DNA of 64,000 bases from Limisphaerales bacterium. Its GTDB lineage: Bacteria; Verrucomicrobiota; Verrucomicrobiia; Limisphaerales; JAEYXS01. The notes under the pieces are model-generated. The model was given only the letters and a program-made list of their open reading frames with translations, was not told where the DNA came from and did not search any database. Where the stretch lies: assembly GCA_965283725.1 (NCBI GenBank), contig CBDIPT010000001.1, forward strand, positions 719,730 through 783,729, given 5' to 3'. Position numbers and translations under genes: made by a program. This document shows, one piece after another, positions 16,558 to 59,628 of this stretch (position 1 is its first letter; each line of letters begins with the position of its first letter).

Positions 16558-17940
16558 ATGGTGAACCAACAGGACGTCCAGACGGCCTTTGCCGAGTACG
16601 ATAAGAAGGTGCGAATCAGCAATTCGCGCCTCGGGGCGATTTGGGCCATGATCTTGATGCCAGCGGGCATTACGCTGGACCTGATGGTCTATCCCGGCCT
16701 GTGGAAGGAGTTCTTCTGGCTGCGCGTGCTCTGTTCGATTTCCGTCTGGGGCGTGCGGGTTCTGTTCAATACGCCCTTTGGTGACCGGAACTATCGTTTC
16801 CTGGGGATGGTTTGGTACATGCTTCCGGCCTTCACCATCGCCGGTATGATCTATGCCTCGGACGAGGTGACGTCGCCTTACTATGCGGGGTTGAACATCG
16901 TCTTGATCGGTGCCGGGTTGTTCTTGCCGTGGACCTATTTTGAAAATTTGCTGGCCTGCCTGCTGGTCACGGCGATGTATGCCCTGGCCGTCCTGTTCAT
17001 CGAGCCGACCTTTGAGTTTCACCTGGTGTTCAACAACCTTTACTTCCTGTTGCTCACCGGCCTCATCGTGGTGGTTTCCAGCTTTTATACGGGGGATAAC
17101 CGCTACCGGGAGTTCGCGTTGCGCTTTGAACTGGACCGGAACAAACAGACTTTGGAAGAGGCGAACCGGCAGCTGAAGGAGTTGGACGAAGTGAAGACGC
17201 GGTTCTTCGCCAACATCAGCCATGAACTGCGCACACCGTTGACGCTTTTGTTGGCCCCGATTGAGTCGATGCGCCGGCAGAAGGCACATCTCTTCGATGA
17301 TCAGACCCGTGAATGGTTATCAACCATGGAGGCCAATGGTCTCCGGTTGTTGAAGCTGATCAACGACCTGCTGGATTTGGTCAAGCTGGAGTCCGGCCAC
17401 ATGCAAGTGAAGAACGAACAGGTCAGCCTCAGTGAATTCCTCCGGGGCCTGTGCAGTTCCGTGCAGAAGATGGCGGATGACAAGCGCGTGCACTTGGGAA
17501 CAGTGGTGGATGACAGCCTCGGCAGCGTTCGCACGGACCGGGATAAACTGGAGAAGATCATGCTGAACTTGGTCTTTAACGCCATCAAGTTCACCCCGGC
17601 AGGCGGGCAGGTGACCTTAAAAGCCAAAAAGGACGGTAATTTCTTCCAGATCGAGGTGATCGATACCGGTATGGGTATTGCGGCCAAGAACCTTCCCTAT
17701 CTGTTTACCCGCTTTTGGCAGGCGGATACCTCCGCCAGAAGAAAATATCAAGGAACAGGTATCGGTCTTGCCTTGGTGAAAGAATTGGTCGAAATTCAGG
17801 GCGGATCAGTCACGGCGGCAAGTGTCGAAGGACAGGGCACCAATATGACGGTGCGCTTGCCGCTGACTGCGGAAAAGGAGGAAGGAGTACCCGTGTCACC
17901 TAACATGCCTGTACCTATCACCAGAATCAGCCGTCCTTGA
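16558..17940 (+). CDS. Polytopic membrane sensor histidine kinase (PhcS-like position)
   Basis: About 6 predicted TM helices fill the first 190 aa. They are followed by a coiled coil, a HisKA H-box (FFANISHELRTPLT), an N-box (LVFNAIKFT) and G-boxes (DTGMGI, GTGIGLALV). Confidence 0.85.
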   Translation: MVNQQDVQTAFAEYDKKVRISNSRLGAIWAMILMPAGITLDLMVYPGLWKEFFWLRVLCSISVWGVRVLFNTPFGDRNYRFLGMVWYMLPAFTIAGMIYASDEVTSPYYAGLNIVLIGAGLFLPWTYFENLLACLLVTAMYALAVLFIEPTFEFHLVFNNLYFLLLTGLIVVVSSFYTGDNRYREFALRFELDRNKQTLEEANRQLKELDEVKTRFFANISHELRTPLTLLLAPIESMRRQKAHLFDDQTREWLSTMEANGLRLLKLINDLLDLVKLESGHMQVKNEQVSLSEFLRGLCSSVQKMADDKRVHLGTVVDDSLGSVRTDRDKLEKIMLNLVFNAIKFTPAGGQVTLKAKKDGNFFQIEVIDTGMGIAAKNLPYLFTRFWQADTSARRKYQGTGIGLALVKELVEIQGGSVTAASVEGQGTNMTVRLPLTAEKEEGVPVSPNMPVPITRISRP

Positions 17941-28132: not shown

Positions 28133-29054
28133 ATGCCGACCGCCACTTCCAAGTCTGCCAGCAAAACGGCGACTTTTGACCTGAACGCGTATCTCGCTGA
28201 GCGCACCGCGCAAGTGAATGACGCGATGGACCAATTTCTGCCCAAAGCCAAGACCAAGCCTGCCGTGCTGCATGAGTCCATGCGCTATTCCATCTTCGCT
28301 GGTGGCAAGCGCATCCGCCCGGCCATCTGCTTGGCTGCCGCTGAAGCCTGTGGTGGTGAGATTGAACCCGCTTTGCCGCTCGCGTGTGCCGTGGAGTGCA
28401 TCCACACGTACCCTGATCCATGACGATCTGCCCGCGATGGATAACGACGATTACCGTCGTGGCAAGCTGACGAATCACAAGGTGTTCGGCGAAGGCATGG
28501 CGATTCTCGCCGGTGATGCACTGCTCACCCAGGCATTTGAGATCGCCGCCTTGAGCAAAGGCTGGCCGCGTTATTCGCATAAGGATTTGATCCTGGAGAT
28601 CGCCAAGGCATCCGGCTCCCTGCAGCTCATCGCCGGTCAGGCGGCGGACCTGCAAGGGGAGGGGAAGAAGCTCTCCGTGCCCGAGTTGCGCTACATCCAT
28701 GAGCGCAAGACCTCGGCACTGCTGTGCTGCTCCGTGCGCCTCGGCGGCATGAGCGCGAACTGCACGCCCGCGCAACTCCAGGCCCTCACCGATTTCGGTT
28801 ACCACGTCGGCCTCGCCTTCCAGGTCATCGACGACATCCTCGACGTCACCCAGACGAGCGAGAAGCTCGGCAAGACCGCTGGCAAAGACACCGCCGCACA
28901 GAAGGCCACGTATCCCTCCATCGTCGGCTTGGAGAAATCCAAGAAGATCGCGAAGCAACTCACGGACAAAGCATTCGCCGCGTTGAAGCCGTTCAAAGGC
29001 AAGGCCGTAGCGTTGGAAAGCATCGCGAGCTATCTGCTGAAGCGGGATAACTAA
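28133..29054 (+). pseudogene. Polyprenyl diphosphate synthase (IspA/GGPP synthase family) interrupted by a frameshift just before the first DDxxD motif
   Basis: ORF 28133-28423 ends ...AVECIHTY then PDP-stop. The +1 frame continues with LIHDDLPAMDNDDYRRGK...GKDTAAQKATYP. The family consensus is ECIHTYSLIHDD, so the Ser codon appears reduced to the single C at 28412 (2 nt missing). Confidence 0.85.
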
Positions 29055-33795: not shown

Positions 33796-34851
33796 ATGCC
33801 GGATACTTCGCCCGGTTCACACAGGGTAAAAAGCATGGCCAAGAAATCCCAGAAGCCGGTCAAAGAAGAGCGGAATATGCCCGTAACGCGTCCGCCGTTT
33901 GAACGGATGATGCGCATCCATCAGGAATTGCAGTCGGGCAAGTATCCGAACGCCACCTCGCTAGCGCGTGAACTGGAGGTCAATCCCAAGAGCATCCACC
34001 GGGATATGGAATTCATGCGTGACCGTCTGGGCTTGCCGGTCGAGTATGATTCGGTCAAACGTGGCTATCACTATACGGAAGAGGTTGGAGCCTTTCCGAC
34101 CCTGCAGATCACGGAAGGAGAATTGTTCGCCCTCTTGGTGGCGGAAAAGGCCCTGCAACAATATCGCGGCACCAGTTTTGAGAAGCCTTTGTTGTCGGCC
34201 TTCAAAAAGATGGCTGCCTCTTTGCCAGACACCGTTTCGCTGAACCTGGCGGATTGGGAGCAGACGATCTCCTTTCGGACCACGGCGGAACCCATCTTGA
34301 ATTTGGAAGTTTTTGACCTGCTGGGGAAAGCAGCGGGAGCGTGCAAACAGCTTAGGTTGCAGTATCGCAAGCCCGGTCAGAAAGAGCCGGAAGAACGGAT
34401 TGTTGACCCGTATCATCTGGCGAACATCAACGGGGAGTGGTTTCTCTTCGCCTATGATCATCTGCGGAAAGATTTACGGACCTTCGCTCCGGCGCGGATT
34501 ATCAGCGCGGACCCGACCGGAAAGAAATTCACGCGTCCGGAGAAGTTCTCCTTGGAACGGCGCTTGCGGGATAGCTTCGGCGTTCACTCCGGCCAGAAGG
34601 AGTTTGCCGTGGTCATCCGCTTTGATGAATTTGCGGCGGATTACATCCGCGAGAAGCGCTGGCATCCTTCGCAGCAGCTCAAGGAACTCGAGGGCGGAGG
34701 TGCTGAACTGACGATGAAGCTCTCCAGTCTGATCGAAGTGCAGCGTTGGATTTTGGGTTGGGGCGGTCATGCCCAAGCCGTCGAGCCACCCGAACTGATC
34801 GAGGCGGTGAAGACGGCGGTGGCAGCGTTGGGCAAGAGCTTCGAGAAGTAG
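33796..34851 (+). CDS. HTH-WYL-WCX type transcriptional regulator (PafB/PafC-like architecture)
   Basis: An N-terminal winged HTH (RMMRIHQELQSGKYPNATSLARELEVNPKSIHRDMEFMRD) is followed by a WYL-like core (DPYHLANINGEWFLFAYD) and a C-terminal extension. The start is uncertain (33796, 33835 or 33877). Confidence 0.8.
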   Translation: MPDTSPGSHRVKSMAKKSQKPVKEERNMPVTRPPFERMMRIHQELQSGKYPNATSLARELEVNPKSIHRDMEFMRDRLGLPVEYDSVKRGYHYTEEVGAFPTLQITEGELFALLVAEKALQQYRGTSFEKPLLSAFKKMAASLPDTVSLNLADWEQTISFRTTAEPILNLEVFDLLGKAAGACKQLRLQYRKPGQKEPEERIVDPYHLANINGEWFLFAYDHLRKDLRTFAPARIISADPTGKKFTRPEKFSLERRLRDSFGVHSGQKEFAVVIRFDEFAADYIREKRWHPSQQLKELEGGGAELTMKLSSLIEVQRWILGWGGHAQAVEPPELIEAVKTAVAALGKSFEK

Positions 34852-34912: not shown

Positions 34913-36628
34913 ATGGCTGGCCAAAAGAAGCAGTCAGGCGGTTCCTCGCAGCCGCCTAAACCGGAAGAAGCCGTTCCCGGCGAATCCGCGGTGCCTCCTA
35001 TTTCCGATATCCTAAGTCGCGAAGAGCTGGATTCTCTTTCCACCCTGCAGTTGGTCGATCTCATCGCCAGCAAGATGCCGCTGCGCAGCAGTGTTTTGCT
35101 GGATCTAGTTTATTTGCGCGACCGCATCACGGCCATCGAGGAGATGAATGATCAGGCGCGTGAGGTCATCGAGAAGCTGGATCAAGCGGTGGAGAAGCTT
35201 CGCTCGCCGGCATTTCGCGTGGGGACGTTTCTCGCACCGTTGGCGCAGGAGCAGGTGCACATCTGTCTTGGTGGTACGGATTACGTATGCAAGGTGGATC
35301 CGGCGATGCCCATCACGAGTTTGCAGATCGGCCAGCGTGTGTTGTGCAATGAAGCGTTCGTGGTGATCCGCAGTCTGGGTTTTGATCAACACGGGCCGAT
35401 CGTGCGGGTGGATGAGACGCTTTCCGATGGCCGCTTGCGCATCGGTCAGGAAACCGGCGCGATGCCGTTGGTGGTGCAACGCTCGGCGCTCTTGCAGAAG
35501 GAGAAGCTGAAATCCGGCATGGAAGTGCGGCTGGATGCGAATCAACGCGTGGCCCTCGAAGTCATCGGCCACGGCAAGCGAATTGACCGTACTTTGGATG
35601 TCGTAGGCGAGGTGCCATGGTCTTCCATCGGTGGACAAACCGAGGCGGTGAAATCTATTCGTGATGCCATCGAACTGCCGTTCCTGCATCGCGAACTCTA
35701 CAAACGGTTTGATCATCGCATCCCGAAAGGTTTCCTGCTGCATGGGCCGCCGGGTTGCGGCAAGACGCTCTTGGGTAAAGCGACGGCTTACAACCTGCGC
35801 CAGCAGTTGAAGCAGCAAACGGGTGTGGATCATCCGGAGTTCTTCCTGCACATCAAGGGGCCGGAGCTGCTCAACATGTGGGTGGGCGAATCCGAGCGGC
35901 AGGTACGTGATCTTTTCCAGCAATGTCGTGAGCGGGCGGCGGAAGGCTATCTCGCGTTTCTCTTCATGGATGAGGCGGAATCGCTTCTAGGTGTGCGGCA
36001 TGGCGGCCGGTTCAATTCCATGTCGAGCACGTTGGTGCCGATGTTCTGTGCAGAGATGGATGGCTTGGAAGCGCTGGCAAATGTTGTCGTCATCCTAGCG
36101 TCCAATCGGGCGGACTTGATTGATCCGGCGATTTTGCGACCGGGGCGCATCGACCGGAAAATCAAGGTGGCGCGGCCAGACAAAGAAGGAGCGCGGGCTA
36201 TTTATGAGATCTATTTACGCGATACCTTGCCATTGGCCGAACCGGGTGCGGAACTGGCCCGGCGCATGACGGAAGCGCATTTTGCGAAGACGGAGGAGAA
36301 CGCATTTCTTGAAGTGAATTACCGGAGTGGACGGAAAGAGACGTTCTATCGCGGCGATTTTGCGAGTGGTGCGATCATTGCAGCCGTGGTGGAGCGTGCG
36401 AAAGCCGGAGCCATACAGCGATCGATTACCAGTGGTAAGGAATCACCGATCACATATGAGGATTTGTTGGCGGCGTTGCGACAGGAGTATGCGGAGAGCA
36501 GCTTGTTCCCGTCGAATGACATGACGGAGGATTGGTTGAAGCTTACGGATCTGGACCCGGAGAACGTGGCGCGCTTGACGCCGATCCGGCCACGCAAGGC
36601 AATGGGGTATGCGTCACAAATCGTGTAG
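34913..36628 (+). CDS. Proteasome-associated AAA+ ATPase (ARC/Mpa-like)
   Basis: It has an N-terminal coiled coil (RDRITAIEEMNDQAREVIEKLDQAVEKL) and an OB-like region. The AAA module has Walker A (GPPGCGKT), Walker B (FLFMDEAES) and ILRPGRIDRKI. The C-terminal region parallels Mpa (GDFASGAIIAAVVERAK). Confidence 0.85.
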   Translation: MAGQKKQSGGSSQPPKPEEAVPGESAVPPISDILSREELDSLSTLQLVDLIASKMPLRSSVLLDLVYLRDRITAIEEMNDQAREVIEKLDQAVEKLRSPAFRVGTFLAPLAQEQVHICLGGTDYVCKVDPAMPITSLQIGQRVLCNEAFVVIRSLGFDQHGPIVRVDETLSDGRLRIGQETGAMPLVVQRSALLQKEKLKSGMEVRLDANQRVALEVIGHGKRIDRTLDVVGEVPWSSIGGQTEAVKSIRDAIELPFLHRELYKRFDHRIPKGFLLHGPPGCGKTLLGKATAYNLRQQLKQQTGVDHPEFFLHIKGPELLNMWVGESERQVRDLFQQCRERAAEGYLAFLFMDEAESLLGVRHGGRFNSMSSTLVPMFCAEMDGLEALANVVVILASNRADLIDPAILRPGRIDRKIKVARPDKEGARAIYEIYLRDTLPLAEPGAELARRMTEAHFAKTEENAFLEVNYRSGRKETFYRGDFASGAIIAAVVERAKAGAIQRSITSGKESPITYEDLLAALRQEYAESSLFPSNDMTEDWLKLTDLDPENVARLTPIRPRKAMGYASQIV

Positions 36629-36739
36629 CGCAGGTTGTCAACCTGCTGTGTCGCCGACTGGCAGTCGGCGTGGCGTTCGAATATTTAACGGTCTGCAGAC
36701 CACCGATCTGCGACACAGCAGACAGCCAGTCTGCGCTAC
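36625..36739. repeat. About 115-nt imperfect palindromic (REP/MITE-like) intergenic element overlapping the arc stop codon
   Basis: The termini GTAGCGCAG (36625-36633) and CTGCGCTAC (36731-36739) are reverse complements. Inner arms CTGCTGTGTCGC (36644-36655) and GCGACACAGCAG (36710-36721) also pair. A nested hairpin CGCCGACTG/CAGTCGGCG lies at 36652-36670. Confidence 0.6.
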
Positions 36740-36761
36740 AACGGACTGAGTTTTTAGGGAT

Positions 36762-38278
36762 ATGGATACGCTGCCAATTTTATTCGGGATTGAGACCGAG
36801 TATGGCATCGCGCGGGATGGCGCGGAGGATCTGGACGTGGTTCAGGAGTCCATCGATCTCGTACGCAGTGCGGCCAGCGCGGGCGTGAAGCAGCGCTGGG
36901 ATTATTCGGCAGAAGATCCGCATCTGGACATGCGCGGCTTTAGGGTGGTTGAGCTGCGGCAGGATTACGATGAAGCGAATTACACCCGGCAGGATGAAGA
37001 ACGCGAACTGAGTTTTCAGGAAATCAAAAGCGATCATGTGTTGCCGAACGGGGCGCGCTTCTACAATGACCACGCGCACCCCGGTACTGCACGCCGGAAT
37101 GTCGTTCGTTTGCGGACATCGTCCTGCAAGACCGCGCGGGAGAACGCATCGTAGAGGCCTGTGCGCAGAAGCTTTCTGAGCGGCGGGGCAGTAAAGTGCG
37201 GGTCTATAAGAACAACACGGACTTTTGGGGGCACAGCTATGGTTGCCATGAGAATTACCTGCTGCCGCGTTCATTAGCCTGGCAGACGTTGGCGGAAGGA
37301 ATGGAAGCGTTTCTCGTCACACGCCAGATCTACGCCGGGGCAGGGAAGTTTGGCATCGAAGCGGAAGACTCCTTTGAAGCGCCCGGATTTCAGATCGCGC
37401 AACGCAGTGACTTTTTCAGTGAGTTGCAGAGTGTGGACACGATGCAGCGGCGGCCCATCATCAATACCCGTGATGAGCCGCATGCGAATGCACGGCTCTA
37501 TCGCCGTTTTCACGTCATCATCGGCGATGCGAACATGTCGCCCTTTGCCACGCGCTTGAAAGTCGGAGTGACGGCACTCGTGCTGGAAGCCATGGTGCTG
37601 GATGCCAAGCGCGCGCATCCGCGTTTGAAGGAACCTTTAGTGGCGTTACCATCCATTTCACAGGATGCCAGCTACAAATGGGAAGTAGCGTTGATAAATC
37701 GCAAGCAGAGCACGGCCTTGGAGATACAACGGCATTACTTGGCGTGTGTGAAAGAAGTGTGTGATTTGAGTTCGGTTGAGCGGCAGGAATTGGTGGCGGA
37801 TTGGGAAACGGTGTTGAATGATCTGGCACTGGATTACCGGAAGTGCCGCGACCGACTTGATTGGGTGGCGAAGCTGATGCTCGTCAAAGAATTCCAAGCG
37901 GCGGAGAAAGTGGCGGACGATGATCCGTGGTTGCGCAGTTTGGACTTGGCTTACCATCTGGTAGATGAAGCGGAAGGGTTGCATGCTGGTCTGGAACACG
38001 CGGGCGTGATGCGTGGGGTGCCGGACGAAAAGGCCGTGATGGAGGCGGCGAACCAGCCGCCGAAGGATACGCGGGCATGGATTCGGGGCCGTTGCGTGGC
38101 GAAGTTCGCCGATGCTGTCATCTCTGCCCAATGGGACCATGTGACCCTGCGCGGCAAGCGGGGGCGGCTGCGCATTTCGTTGCTCGATTTATTCGCGCCG
38201 GAAGATATTTTGCGCTATGCTCAATGCATAGAGCGGGCGGTGACGCCTGATGACCTGCAAGCCATTGCGGAAACCTAG
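36762..38278 (+). pseudogene. dop: Pup deamidase/depupylase Dop-like (Pup-ligase/glutamine-synthetase-like fold), interrupted by a 1-nt frameshift
   Basis: The N-terminus is FGIETEYGI...NGARFYNDHAHP, after which the frame is lost at about 37083. The -1 frame continues with EYCTPECRSFADIVLQDRAGERIVE...VYKNNTDFWGHSYGCHENYLL and runs to the end at 38278. Restoring one base (CCC-GnG-TAC) gives the family motif HAHPEYCTPEC. Confidence 0.8.
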
Positions 38279-38282
38279 CTAT

Positions 38283-38456
38283 ATGCCTGATCAAACCCAA
38301 AAACAACGTCCGACCCCGCCTGCACCCGGCGGCGGTGGTGGCGAGGGGCCACGGGAACCCCAGGTGGAGAAGCCGAACACGGAAGACCTCCTGAAGCGGA
38401 TGCGCAAGGTCGATCCCGACCAGGCACGCCGCTACCGTCAACGCACCGGCCAATAA
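38283..38456 (+). CDS. pup: Pup/UBact-like small modifier (57 aa, C-terminal ...RQRTGQ)
   Basis: It is a small ORF exactly at the pup position between dop and prcB. It has a G-rich, disordered N-terminal half, a short helix-prone C-terminal half and a terminal Gly-Gln. The ATG at 38283 lies 5 nt after the dop stop, and the ORF ends 1 nt before prcB. Confidence 0.7.
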   Translation: MPDQTQKQRPTPPAPGGGGGEGPREPQVEKPNTEDLLKRMRKVDPDQARRYRQRTGQ

Positions 38457-38457
38457 C

Positions 38458-39231
38458 ATGAATACCGGGATAGCAGGGGATTTCTTAGGATTGCTGGCTC
38501 AGAACAATCTGCGACCGCTCTCTGCGGAGGCATCATCGCGAGCGCCGGAGCAGACGCATGCCACGACCGTTTTCGCCTTTCGTTTTCGTGATGGCGTTTT
38601 GGTGGCAGGTGATCGCCGCGCGACGGCCGGCAATGTCATCGTGGCCGATGATGTGACCAAGATCATCGAGATTGATCGTTCTTCCGTGCTGGCCATCGCG
38701 GGCGTTCCAGCCATGGCCTTTGAGATGGCCCGGACAATGCAGGTTTCCTTTGCCTACTATCGCCGCAGCCAGCTTCAGCCCTTGAGTCTCGAAGCGAAGG
38801 TGCGGGCTTTGGCGCGCTTGCTGCGCGAGAATCTGCCGCTGACCTTGCAAGGTGTTGGCGTCGTCGCCCCGCTGTTTGCCACCGTGGAAACGTTGGGAGA
38901 CAAGGTGCTCCCGCGCATTTATTTTTACGATCCACTGGGCGCGCAATTTGAAGCCGTGAACTTCGCGGCGTCTGGTTCCGGCTCTGGCACCGTTCGCAGC
39001 GTGCTCAGCTTTCAAGAGCGTTTCGGTGAAGTGAAACCCTCGGCGATGACGCTCAACCAAGCCGTGCGGTTTGCGCATAATGTTTTGATGGTGGCCTCGG
39101 AATTTGATGCGGCCACGGGCGGACTTGATCCTTTGCGCACGGTGTGGCCGGTCATCAAAGTGCTCGATGATAAAGGTGTTCGTGACTTGCAAACAGCGGA
39201 ACATCTCACCGCGCAGAAGGAGGGGGCATGA
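38458..39231 (+). CDS. prcB: Proteasome beta subunit with propeptide
   Basis: ...QTHA/TTVFAFRFRDGVLVAGDRRAT shows Thr1 after the propeptide, the G-D-x-R-A-T block, and IAGVPAMAFEMAR. Confidence 0.85.
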   Translation: MNTGIAGDFLGLLAQNNLRPLSAEASSRAPEQTHATTVFAFRFRDGVLVAGDRRATAGNVIVADDVTKIIEIDRSSVLAIAGVPAMAFEMARTMQVSFAYYRRSQLQPLSLEAKVRALARLLRENLPLTLQGVGVVAPLFATVETLGDKVLPRIYFYDPLGAQFEAVNFAASGSGSGTVRSVLSFQERFGEVKPSAMTLNQAVRFAHNVLMVASEFDAATGGLDPLRTVWPVIKVLDDKGVRDLQTAEHLTAQKEGA

Positions 39232-39965
39232 CCGAGGAACCATTTCGCTGGTTGGAGGCGATCGCGAATCGCCGGGATTACGTGCAGCAACAGATCGCGA
39301 CGGGCTCGCCGGTCTTCGCGGTGAGCTTGGAGGTGGGCATCTTGTTGCTCGGCGTGGGCAGTGGGCAATCGAAAGTGTTCGAGATATTTGACCGGCAGGC
39401 GATGGCGGCATTGGGGCATCCGGCGGATATCGAGCGTGTCCGCCAAATCCTCATTGATGCCGCGCATCTGGAAGCGTTCACGCGGGCGGCGGCGGATGTG
39501 AATGTGCGGCGCTTGGTGAGCTTTGGCCTGAGTCCGCAGCTCAAGCAAAGCTTCGAGCAAATCTTTCAGGCCCCCTTCATGATTGATTTGCTGCTGGCGG
39601 AAGTCGCGGAACGTCCGGCTTTGGATGTACTGGTGAAGGTAAATTTTGATGGCGGTTTCCAGATCCAGCATGGTGGTGTGATGGTGGCGGCGGCCAAACC
39701 GGAGCAGGTCGCGACGACGGCTGAATGGTTGAAGAAGAACATCGATGCCAAGCTGCCACCGTCTAAAGCGGCGTTGATCTTGCTGGTGGCTTGGGATGCC
39801 CTGGTGCGCAATCAAGCATTGCCGGAGACGCTGGATTTATCCGGCGGTCTGCCGCCTGCCTGCTTGGAACAGCTTAATGGCAAAATGGTGGAGGCGGCTT
39901 TGCTCGAACGGCAAGGCAGCAGCGCGGCGCGCTACACACCCTTGATTCCCTTGTTAACCGGTTAA
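39228..39965 (+). CDS. prcA: Proteasome alpha subunit
   Basis: It has an ATGA overlap with prcB. The Ntn-fold pattern lacks an N-terminal Thr (GSPVFAVSLEVGILLLGV...FEIFDRQAMAALG). Size and position are as for bacterial PrcA. Confidence 0.8.
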   Translation: MTEEPFRWLEAIANRRDYVQQQIATGSPVFAVSLEVGILLLGVGSGQSKVFEIFDRQAMAALGHPADIERVRQILIDAAHLEAFTRAAADVNVRRLVSFGLSPQLKQSFEQIFQAPFMIDLLLAEVAERPALDVLVKVNFDGGFQIQHGGVMVAAAKPEQVATTAEWLKKNIDAKLPPSKAALILLVAWDALVRNQALPETLDLSGGLPPACLEQLNGKMVEAALLERQGSSAARYTPLIPLLTG

Positions 39966-39969
39966 TGTT

Positions 39970-41388
39970 ATGAACCGCATCGTCGGCCTGGAGACCGAGT
40001 ATGGTTGCCTGATCAACGAGACAGGTGCGCCGCCGGGATTGATTGGCCGGGTGCGTAACTGGTTGTTCGAGGCGAATCGATTCGGCCTGCCCGATCTGCA
40101 CCAACGTGATTGGGACGAGCCGGCGGGCAATGGGGGATTTCTCTTCAATGGCGGTCGCGCGTATGTGGACATGGGCCATCTGGAATACTGCACGCCTGAA
40201 TGCCTCACCGTGCGGGATGTCATCAAGTATGATCGCGCCGGGGATGCGATGCTCAATCTGGCCTTGCAGCAGTTGGATTTCACGGAGGTCGCCGGCTTCG
40301 TGCGAAACAACGTGGACCACTATTCCGGTGCGACGTTTGGTTGCCATGAGAATTACCTCGTCCGGCGGCAAGCGCCGTTGACCGAAAAGAATGTCCTGTC
40401 TTTGCTCACGTTTTTGACGGTGAGGTTATTGATGGTCGGTGCGGGCAAGGTGGGCGCCTCACCAGGCGTGGAGCAGGGGAACGCGCCGTTCCCTACAGGC
40501 AAAGTGCCCAAGTTTCAGATCAGCCAGCGGGCGGATTACATCAACAACGATCTCTTTGAATGGGTGCAATTCAATCGCGCTATCATCAATACCCGCGATG
40601 AACCGTTGGCGGATGGCCGGAAGTATCGTCGTTTGCATCTCCTGCATGGCGATACCTCGGTCCTGCCTTCAACGCTGGCCTTGAAGGTGGGCACCGCCGC
40701 GCTCGTGCTCGACTTGTTAGAGATCGATCATTTGCCAGAGATTGCCTTGGCGGATGCGGTGATGACTTTTCACACTTTGTCACATGACATCGACGGACCT
40801 TGGCTGGTGCAGTTGAGTGACGGACGGCAAATGGATGCCTTGGAGTTGCTCGACCTTTACCGGCGGAAGGCACAGAGCGAGTTCGGCGGGCGCGATGCCG
40901 AGACAGACGATGTGCTAAGACTTTGGCAGGGAACCATCGAGCGGCTGTGCAAAAAACGGGAAGAGCTGGTAGGGGTGGTGGACTGGGTGACCAAACGGTG
41001 GTTGTTTGAACAATTTATTGCCGAGCAAGGTCTGGACTGGGGTGATCCTTGGCTGAAGTCCCTGGATCTGGAATTCCATCATATCGCCCCGGGACGTGGA
41101 TTGGGGCTATCGTTGGACAAGGCGGACCTCGGGTGGTCCCCTGCGGGTGAGAGTATTTTGCAAGCCATGCAACAAGCGCCGGATAATACCCGGGCAGGAT
41201 TGCGTTCCCGCCTGATGCACGAGTTGAATCACCGGGCGTTGCGGTATTACGTCGATTGGGAAGTGATCGATGCCGCCGGGACGAAGACCTTGGAGCTCTC
41301 CAACCCCTTTCAGGTGGAATCGCCGGAAGCGACGGCTTGGTTGAAGGCGTTAGATGAGGCTCCCCCAGTGACACCTGAGCCTGAATAG
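39970..41388 (+). CDS. pafA: Pup-protein ligase PafA-like
   Basis: VGLETEYG, GGRAYVDMGHLEYCTPEC, GCHENYLV and INTRDEPLAD form the same fold family as the dop-like gene. It lacks the long insertion seen after the first beta-hairpin of the dop-like paralog. Confidence 0.8.
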   Translation: MNRIVGLETEYGCLINETGAPPGLIGRVRNWLFEANRFGLPDLHQRDWDEPAGNGGFLFNGGRAYVDMGHLEYCTPECLTVRDVIKYDRAGDAMLNLALQQLDFTEVAGFVRNNVDHYSGATFGCHENYLVRRQAPLTEKNVLSLLTFLTVRLLMVGAGKVGASPGVEQGNAPFPTGKVPKFQISQRADYINNDLFEWVQFNRAIINTRDEPLADGRKYRRLHLLHGDTSVLPSTLALKVGTAALVLDLLEIDHLPEIALADAVMTFHTLSHDIDGPWLVQLSDGRQMDALELLDLYRRKAQSEFGGRDAETDDVLRLWQGTIERLCKKREELVGVVDWVTKRWLFEQFIAEQGLDWGDPWLKSLDLEFHHIAPGRGLGLSLDKADLGWSPAGESILQAMQQAPDNTRAGLRSRLMHELNHRALRYYVDWEVIDAAGTKTLELSNPFQVESPEATAWLKALDEAPPVTPEPE

Positions 41389-58696: not shown

Positions 58697-59628
58697 ATGA
58701 TTCCCCGCGAGATACTGAAGAAAGTCCGACAGATCGAGTTGCGCACCAATCGCTTGGTGAGCGAGTCGCTTTCCGGCCGTTATCACAGTGCGTTCAAGGG
58801 GCAGGGGATGGATTTCGACGAAGTGCGGGAATACCAGCCGGGTGATGAAGTTCGCTCCATCGATTGGAATGTCACTGCGCGGATGAACCATCCGTTCGTG
58901 AAGAAGTTCGTGGAGGAACGCGAGTTGACGGTGATGCTGCTGGTCGATGTCAGCGCCTCCGGTTGGTTTGGCTCGGGGGCGCAATCCAAGCGTGAACTCG
59001 CCGCCGAGATCGCCTCCGTGCTGGCGTTCTCTGCCATCCGCAATCAGGATAAAGTCGGCGTATCCTTTACACCGATACGGTGGAGAAATACATCCCGCCC
59101 CGTAAGGGCAAGCGGCATGTCCTGCGGGTCATCCGCGAAGTGTTGTGTTTTGAGCCGAAATCGCGCGGCACGGATCTGAAGCAGGCGATGGAGTTTCTGA
59201 ATCGCGTCATCACGCGGCATGCCATTGTGGTTTTAGTGTCGGACTTTTTGGAACAGAACCGGGCGGGCCTACCGCTTTCCCGGCATGAGCGCAAACTGTC
59301 CGCCATCGCCACAACTGTGCTGCGGCAGGCGAACCGGCGCCATGATGTCGTGGCGGTGCAGATCACAGACCGGCATGAAATGGAACTGCCCAAGGTGGGG
59401 CGTTTGGTTTTGCGAGACGCGGAATCCGGCAAAATGCTGGAAGTGAACACGCAGGATGAAGGGTTGCGCCGGCGTTACAACGAGGTGCAGGAAAAGGAAC
59501 TGGCTGAATTGGGCAAATTCTTCCGTTCCTTGGGGATCGATGCCATCCGCCTGCGCACGGATGAGTCTTATAGCGCGGCTTTGGCCGCCTTTTTTGAAAC
59601 GCGCGAGAAGCGCCGTCGTCACGGATGA
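58697..59628 (+). pseudogene. DUF58-family protein (MoxR partner) interrupted by a 1-nt frameshift
   Basis: ORF1 reads ...GMDFDEVREYQPGDEVRSIDWNVTAR...LLVDVSASG...NQDKVGV and is then lost. The -1 frame continues (I)LYTDTVEKYIPPRKGKRHVLRVI...VVLVSDF. One base appears to be missing at about 59062/59063. Confidence 0.8.

Follow-up and report, generated by a model that had tools for sequence, protein, structure and literature searches.

Two described systems lie closest to the locus considered here: the Pup-proteasome system of actinobacteria and the UBact-proteasome cluster of Gram-negative phyla, in which the genes run Mpa-Dop-UBact-PrcB-PrcA-PafA. Pup is known with either a GGQ or a GGE tail, a Gln/Glu dimorphism that is shared by UBact modifiers. 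The UBact system was reportedly named by Lehmann, Udasin, Livneh and Ciechanover in 2017 (BBRC 483:946-950). That paper is included in the reference list of PMC12751074. Reference enzymes for the Pup system are Dop of Mycobacterium tuberculosis and of Acidothermus cellulolyticus (PDB 4B0R) and PafA of Corynebacterium glutamicum (PDB 4B0T). The first-pass annotation of this DNA started from the premise that a C-terminal Gln on Pup requires deamidation by Dop, and for Pup the literature agrees: Gln-ended Pup needs Dop before PafA can ligate it (PMC9556782, PMC12288473), and PafA is unable to deamidate Pup-Gln (PMC12288473). The loop of M. tuberculosis Dop contains WDYEV, and both the motif and its role have been described (PMC9556782). 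A literature search found no bench work or biochemistry on UBact systems, and we infer all of the biochemical steps for UBact from the Pup system (PMC9556782, PMC12288473). By that analogy, a Dop-like amidase would convert the C-terminal Gln of UBact to Glu, a PafA-like ligase would phosphorylate the Glu side chain and join UBact to substrate lysines, and ARC would unfold the tagged proteins and thread them into the 20S PrcAB core; Dop would also remove the tag.

We analysed a window of 64,000 nucleotides, the whole stretch of DNA presented above, from a verrucomicrobial genome. Within it, a co-directional cluster encodes a PafBC-like regulator, ARC/Mpa, Dop, UBact, PrcB, PrcA and PafA, laid out as follows in window coordinates.

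33796-34851, plus strand: PafBC-like transcription regulator (HTH_11, WYL and WCX), first gene of the cluster; Pfam WYL 64.4 bits, WCX 60.2 bits, weak HTH_11.
34913-36628, plus strand: ARC/Mpa-like proteasomal AAA ATPase, 571 aa; TIGR03689 428.2 bits, below the cut-off of 504.75.
36762-37082, plus strand: N-terminal part of the dop-like gene in frame 0, codons 1-107, with the ETE motif, the Dop loop and NDHAHP; TIGR03688 63.9 bits over profile positions 3-98, Pup_ligase positions 2-86.
37083-37084, plus strand: 'GG' left of the invariant Glu codon where 1 nt is deleted; in an alignment of 19 DNAs every relative has GAG or GAA.
37085-38278, plus strand: C-terminal part of the dop-like gene in the -1 frame, from YCTPEC to the stop; TIGR03688 361.9 bits against 310.3 for the PafA model, Pup_ligase positions 88-440, PDB Dop 4b0r 272.7 bits against PafA 4b0t 188.8.
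38283-38456, plus strand: UBact modifier, 57 aa counted from the second ATG, ending ...RYRQRTGQ; NF033388 80.7 bits (cut-off 35), PF20513 79.9 bits (cut-off 27.8).
38458-39231, plus strand: proteasome beta subunit PrcB; TIGR03690 163.6 bits, below the cut-off of 191.9.
39228-39965, plus strand: proteasome alpha subunit PrcA, divergent; TIGR03691 56.3 bits, below the cut-off.
39970-41388, plus strand: intact PafA-like paralog (ligase) of 472 aa that lacks a Dop loop; Pup_ligase 364.7 bits, PDB PafA 218.9 bits against Dop 201.8.

Gene order and content match the UBact-proteasome cluster of Gram-negative phyla, with the PafBC-like WYL regulator lying directly upstream. The modifier exceeds the cut-offs of the UBact models and has a tail of the ...RYRQRTG[QE] form, and the sole difference here is the 1-nt gap that the assembly shows in dop. 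UBact-proteasome clusters are known and catalogued, and this locus is a standard, ordinary example. With the actinobacterial Pup-proteasome system it shares homologous enzymes of the Pup_ligase fold and the placement of Dop upstream of the modifier.

Several features around these genes can be recorded alongside. The C-terminus of the ARC/Mpa-like ATPase (36599-36628) reads ...KAMGYASQIV and lacks the penultimate Tyr of the GQYL type, a C-terminal motif that is mycobacterial. The spacer between arc and dop (36629-36761) is 133 nt long and holds a GC-rich inverted repeat (GCCGACTGGCAGTCGGC), possibly a terminator-like structure or a repeat element that was inserted; this spacer measures about 10-20 nt in a congener (G004) and in G003, the closest relative (92-93% identity in Dop), and in another relative (G001) the hairpin is a different one. 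The locus is also present on two verrucomicrobial MAG contigs (L045 and L050) whose public records bear the titles 'Chitinophaga pinensis' and 'Klebsiella pneumoniae'; these are evidently mislabelled bins.

By its profile matches, the modifier is UBact and not classical Pup: it passes the curated cut-offs and ends in R-T-G-[QE]. The first-pass annotation had described a Pup-like modifier ending in ...TGQ; the Gln end stands (...RYRQRTGQ), and the family has to be amended from Pup to UBact (NF033388, PF20513). Pup is acidic with a GGQ tail, whereas the UBact encoded here is basic with an RTGQ tail. Its longest reading frame, 68 aa from the ATG at 38250, shares 29 nt with the end of dop; a start at the second ATG (38283) is likelier and would give the 57 aa found in relatives. 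The same ...RYRQRTGQ tail occurs in seven of seven genus relatives (L003-L009). More widely, UBact ends in Gln in most Verrucomicrobia, and in Glu in Nitrospirales, Latescibacterota and some Verrucomicrobia (L015 (G028), L049, L052-L058). In Chloroflexota MAGs (L063, L065, L066) the Dop-like gene is followed by a small modifier of a third kind, whose tail reads ...IREVPDPTPQPGGE; the PafA-like gene lies about 0.2-0.7 kb further on, with no space for prcBA between.

The dop-like gene spans 36762-38278 (505 codons) and is split in the assembly by one missing base at 37083, in the codon of the invariant Glu of the HAHPEYCTPEC block. Frame 0 opens at the ATG at 36762, reads MDTLPILFGIETEYG...NDHAHP up to codon 107, which ends at 37082, and then continues as junk until the stop at 37152-37154; the -1 frame, open from position 37073 on, reads YCTPECRSFADIV... 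from 37085 and stops at 38276-38278. We aligned this genome with 18 orthologous DNAs, seven from the same genus and eleven from the same order. A single column of the alignment is gapped, and the gap is in this genome alone (CACCCCG-GTACTGC against CCxGA[A/G]TA[C/T]TGC), all 18 relatives being intact at the break site. The break that the first-pass annotation had placed at about 37083 in this block is thereby confirmed for the assembly; the comparison with orthologues that it called for found none with the deletion. The deleted base lies outside any long homopolymer. The two pieces cover positions 2-86 and 88-440 of Pfam Pup_ligase, and therefore only the Glu codon of HPEY is lost; the assembly has no intact Dop frame with all active-site residues, and the other conserved blocks are all present. 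The N-terminal part is 92.5% identical to residues 1-107 of the G003 protein, and full-length dop is found in five genomes of the same genus, as open frames of 506-585 codons from stop to stop.

Sequence comparisons support the assignment of the broken paralog to Dop, which is reasonable, but the enzyme falls outside the actinobacterial equivalog. Against PDB proteins it scores 261-273 bits with Dop (4b0r, 5lrt, 9cku) and 189 bits with PafA (4b0t, 4bjr), the top scores being 272.7 for Acidothermus Dop and 188.8 for Corynebacterium PafA. Its pieces reach 361.9-364.9 and 61.8-63.9 bits on TIGR03688 and both prefer the Dop model over the PafA model, and the UBact-system Dop-like enzyme scores 109 bits higher on the Dop model than on the PafA model. 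The TIGR03688 cut-off of 492.3 bits is not reached even by the intact G003 orthologue (448.4), unlike actinobacterial Dop, and the UBact-system Dop-like enzyme therefore sits outside that equivalog; the Micromonospora controls gave 748 bits (Dop) and 763 bits (PafA). A Dop loop is recognised as about 40 aa with a conserved WDY(E)... motif, absent from PafA. Here WDYSAEDPHLDMRGF aligns with the classical Dop WDYE.ESPLRDARGF (motif WDY..E.P..D.RGF), so that the WDY...RGF loop of the Pup-system enzyme (WDYEV in M. tuberculosis, PMC9556782) is common to both, and the motif is missing from both PafA groups. The loop is longer here, with 82 residues between ETE and NGxRxY against 66-75 in classical Dop. 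The insertion singled out in the first-pass annotation lies at the Dop loop position and is homologous to the Dop loop. Synteny points the same way, with arc followed by dop directly upstream of the modifier and prcBA.

The phylogenetic placement depends on the model, and one tree favours this assignment with moderate support. In an LG+C20 PMSF tree of a balanced set of 52 sequences, the broken paralog groups with classical Dop (UFBoot 84, SH-aLRT 80) and the PafA-like paralog with classical PafA, whereas a quick LG+G4 tree of 120 sequences, on which we place no weight, unites the two UBact-system paralogs and separates them from classical Dop and PafA. AU tests cannot separate these two topologies: the grouping of the UBact paralogs together is not rejected (p 0.47), and a topology that joins the broken paralog to classical PafA comes close to rejection (p 0.056). 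Synteny and the insertion, on which the original assignment to Dop was based, are thus strengthened by the profile and PDB scores, the loop motif and a moderately supported tree, and a placement with PafA, which would have told against the assignment, did not emerge. The PafA-like paralog scores 273.2 bits on the PafA model (TIGR03686, cut-off 551.3, which it does not reach) and 267.1 on the Dop model; this is no clear preference for the PafA model and is unlike actinobacterial PafA. As side observations on the family as a whole (L045-L124), its members fall into four clean groups, namely classical Dop, classical PafA, UBact-type Dop-like and UBact-type PafA-like; members of the last group obtain equal scores from the Dop HMM and the PafA HMM. 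How the groups pair varies with the model, and a separate Dop/PafA duplication within the UBact lineage is not rejected (AU p 0.47).

The break in dop has company throughout the genome. We took 400 kb of G003, the closest relative, and searched its ORFs of 250 aa or more against the whole of this genome (G000); 118 of them have an orthologue here that is 70% or more identical, and 15 of these orthologues (12.7%), dop included, are frame-split. The reverse test found no true splits in G003; three apparent ones were echoes of the G000 breaks (an antisense ORF and stop-to-stop extensions) and were discarded. At the nucleotide level the 15 breaks comprise ten 1-nt deletions, three 2-nt deletions and two in stretches too divergent to resolve, with no insertion among the resolved breaks. 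Across 59,322 aa aligned by tblastn, four in-frame stops were flagged, none of them a nonsense mutation in a gene: a shadow ORF holds two, another precedes the real start within an N-terminal extension, and the last is in a frameshift overlap. Housekeeping genes are hit too (GatB, TrpB, FPP synthase and PrmC), along with kinases and response regulators. Breaks occur about once per 13 kb of conserved coding sequence, and at that rate dop (1,517 nt) would be expected to carry 0.117 breaks, with a chance of about 11% of at least one. Four genes are broken in the window, where about four are predicted from the genome rate; those other than dop are the following, each frame-split by a small deletion.

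About 17915-17937: hybrid histidine kinase.
About 28404-28412: FPP synthase (ispA, farnesyl-diphosphate synthase).
About 59062-59180: DUF58 gene.

Among the conserved genes sampled elsewhere in the genome there are eleven further breaks, on contigs C2, C3, C5, C6, C7 and C8, and include gatB, trpB and prmC. The assembly has 16 contigs totalling 5.7 Mb, the largest of 1.19 Mb, and its completeness is 90.7%, below that of far more fragmented relatives; low completeness despite long contigs is the effect expected when indels break marker genes. Many 1-2 nt deletions in conserved genes and long contigs with depressed marker-gene completeness are likewise typical of indel-rich long-read metagenome and draft assemblies, the difference being that the dop site here is not a long homopolymer. 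The gene itself shows no sign of decay or relaxed selection: its pairwise dN/dS to relatives is 0.04-0.07, against 0.03-0.06 among the intact relatives, and it carries nine lineage-unique replacements, compared with 3-11 in the others.

Taken together, the single-base deletion at 37083 is very probably a consensus indel error of this assembly, which is probably a long-read one, insufficiently polished, and we attribute the frame break in dop to that error with considerable confidence. Deletions only, spread across the genome and reaching essential genes that are under strong purifying selection, are what consensus error, and not decay, leaves behind. All comparable relatives in the genus keep dop together with a Gln-ended UBact. 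The genome has two Pup_ligase-family genes and one UBact gene, and a search of the whole genome for a second Dop-like gene or a second UBact gene found neither, so that loss of dop would be costly. Most likely, the organism has an intact dop gene of about 505 codons. An independent copy of the species was sought as well: an exact look-up of the UBact protein returned no record, the allele-tolerant pattern GACCACGCGCACCCCG-N{0,1}-GTACTGCACGCCGGAATG had no match in metagenome contigs or genome contigs, and the best database protein match is a 92%-identical orthologue from another species. With no independent assembly or metagenome contig of the species found, the case for an artefact is statistical, and reads carrying the missing base are something we infer.

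The first-pass annotation had left two alternatives standing, a real block of the pathway and a sequence error, and the evidence favours the error and disfavours the block. A real deletion would amount to a very recent loss of dop function in this strain or population, which we think improbable. The lesion falls in an invariant active-site block and would be fully inactivating, and the lost base lies outside a homopolymer; lesions of the same type, however, affect 13% of conserved long genes, essential ones among them, insertions and nonsense codons are absent, selection on dop shows no sign of relaxation, and every comparable relative retains dop beside a Q-ended UBact. Such a loss would block tagging at activation and abolish de-tagging unless some unknown amidase compensated. 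Tolerance of dop loss in the genus might be suggested by G004, whose dop (L006, contig C34, 1188-1230) carries an independent out-of-frame deletion of 122 nt, equivalent to window positions 36793-36914, by which the ETE motif and the beginning of the Dop loop are lost and which is flanked by the 8-bp direct repeat TTATTCGG. G004 is a fragmentary MAG, 76% complete and apparently from short reads, and the lesion may be real or an artefact of its assembly or a variant. In the same genome, the stop codon of arc is changed from TAA to GAA, and arc runs on into dop. The deletion in G004 would fit a natural dop-null state in which one Gln-ended UBact, the PafA-like ligase (intact) and the proteasome are still encoded, a state to which we give slightly less credence still. 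A real dop-null here would have no obvious bypass, because the genome encodes one UBact, which is Gln-ended, and only two Pup_ligase genes, and PafA is unable to deamidate Pup-Gln.

Two further explanations would let the gene as assembled yield a functional enzyme. Programmed -1 ribosomal frameshifting, or transcriptional slippage, at CAC-CCC-G could restore full-length Dop, and a P-site tRNA-Pro could re-pair one base back on C-CCC; we regard this as very improbable and reject a programmed site, as an X-XXY-YYZ heptamer is absent, shuffled sequences fold just as well as the downstream RNA (z = 0.20), and none of the 18 relatives is frameshifted, which speaks against a conserved recoding site. 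The slip would also put Arg (CGG) where Glu is invariant in both paralog families. Still harder to credit is a split Dop, made as two separate pieces (130 aa, and 360 aa from a GTG at 37196) that assemble into a functional enzyme. Both ORFs are open and the downstream GTG is a possible start, but the break removes the invariant Glu, initiation at the internal start would drop about 37 residues including YCTPEC and DRAGE, and no relative has a split gene.

With a consensus error as the preferred explanation, the many broken genes of this genome would have one technical cause in common, and 'broken gene' findings in it (ispA, gatB, trpB, the DUF58 gene, kinases and dop) are best treated as assembly error until reads say otherwise. 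The protein-tagging pathway of this organism is most likely intact and ordinary. A real frameshift would be a natural test of whether UBact ending in Gln depends on its Dop. A true dop-null, taken with the deletion in G004, would imply one of two things: the genus can do without UBact tagging and is losing it, or UBact-Gln can be activated without Dop. Such Dop-free activation, by the PafA-like paralog or another amidase, would depart from the Pup paradigm.
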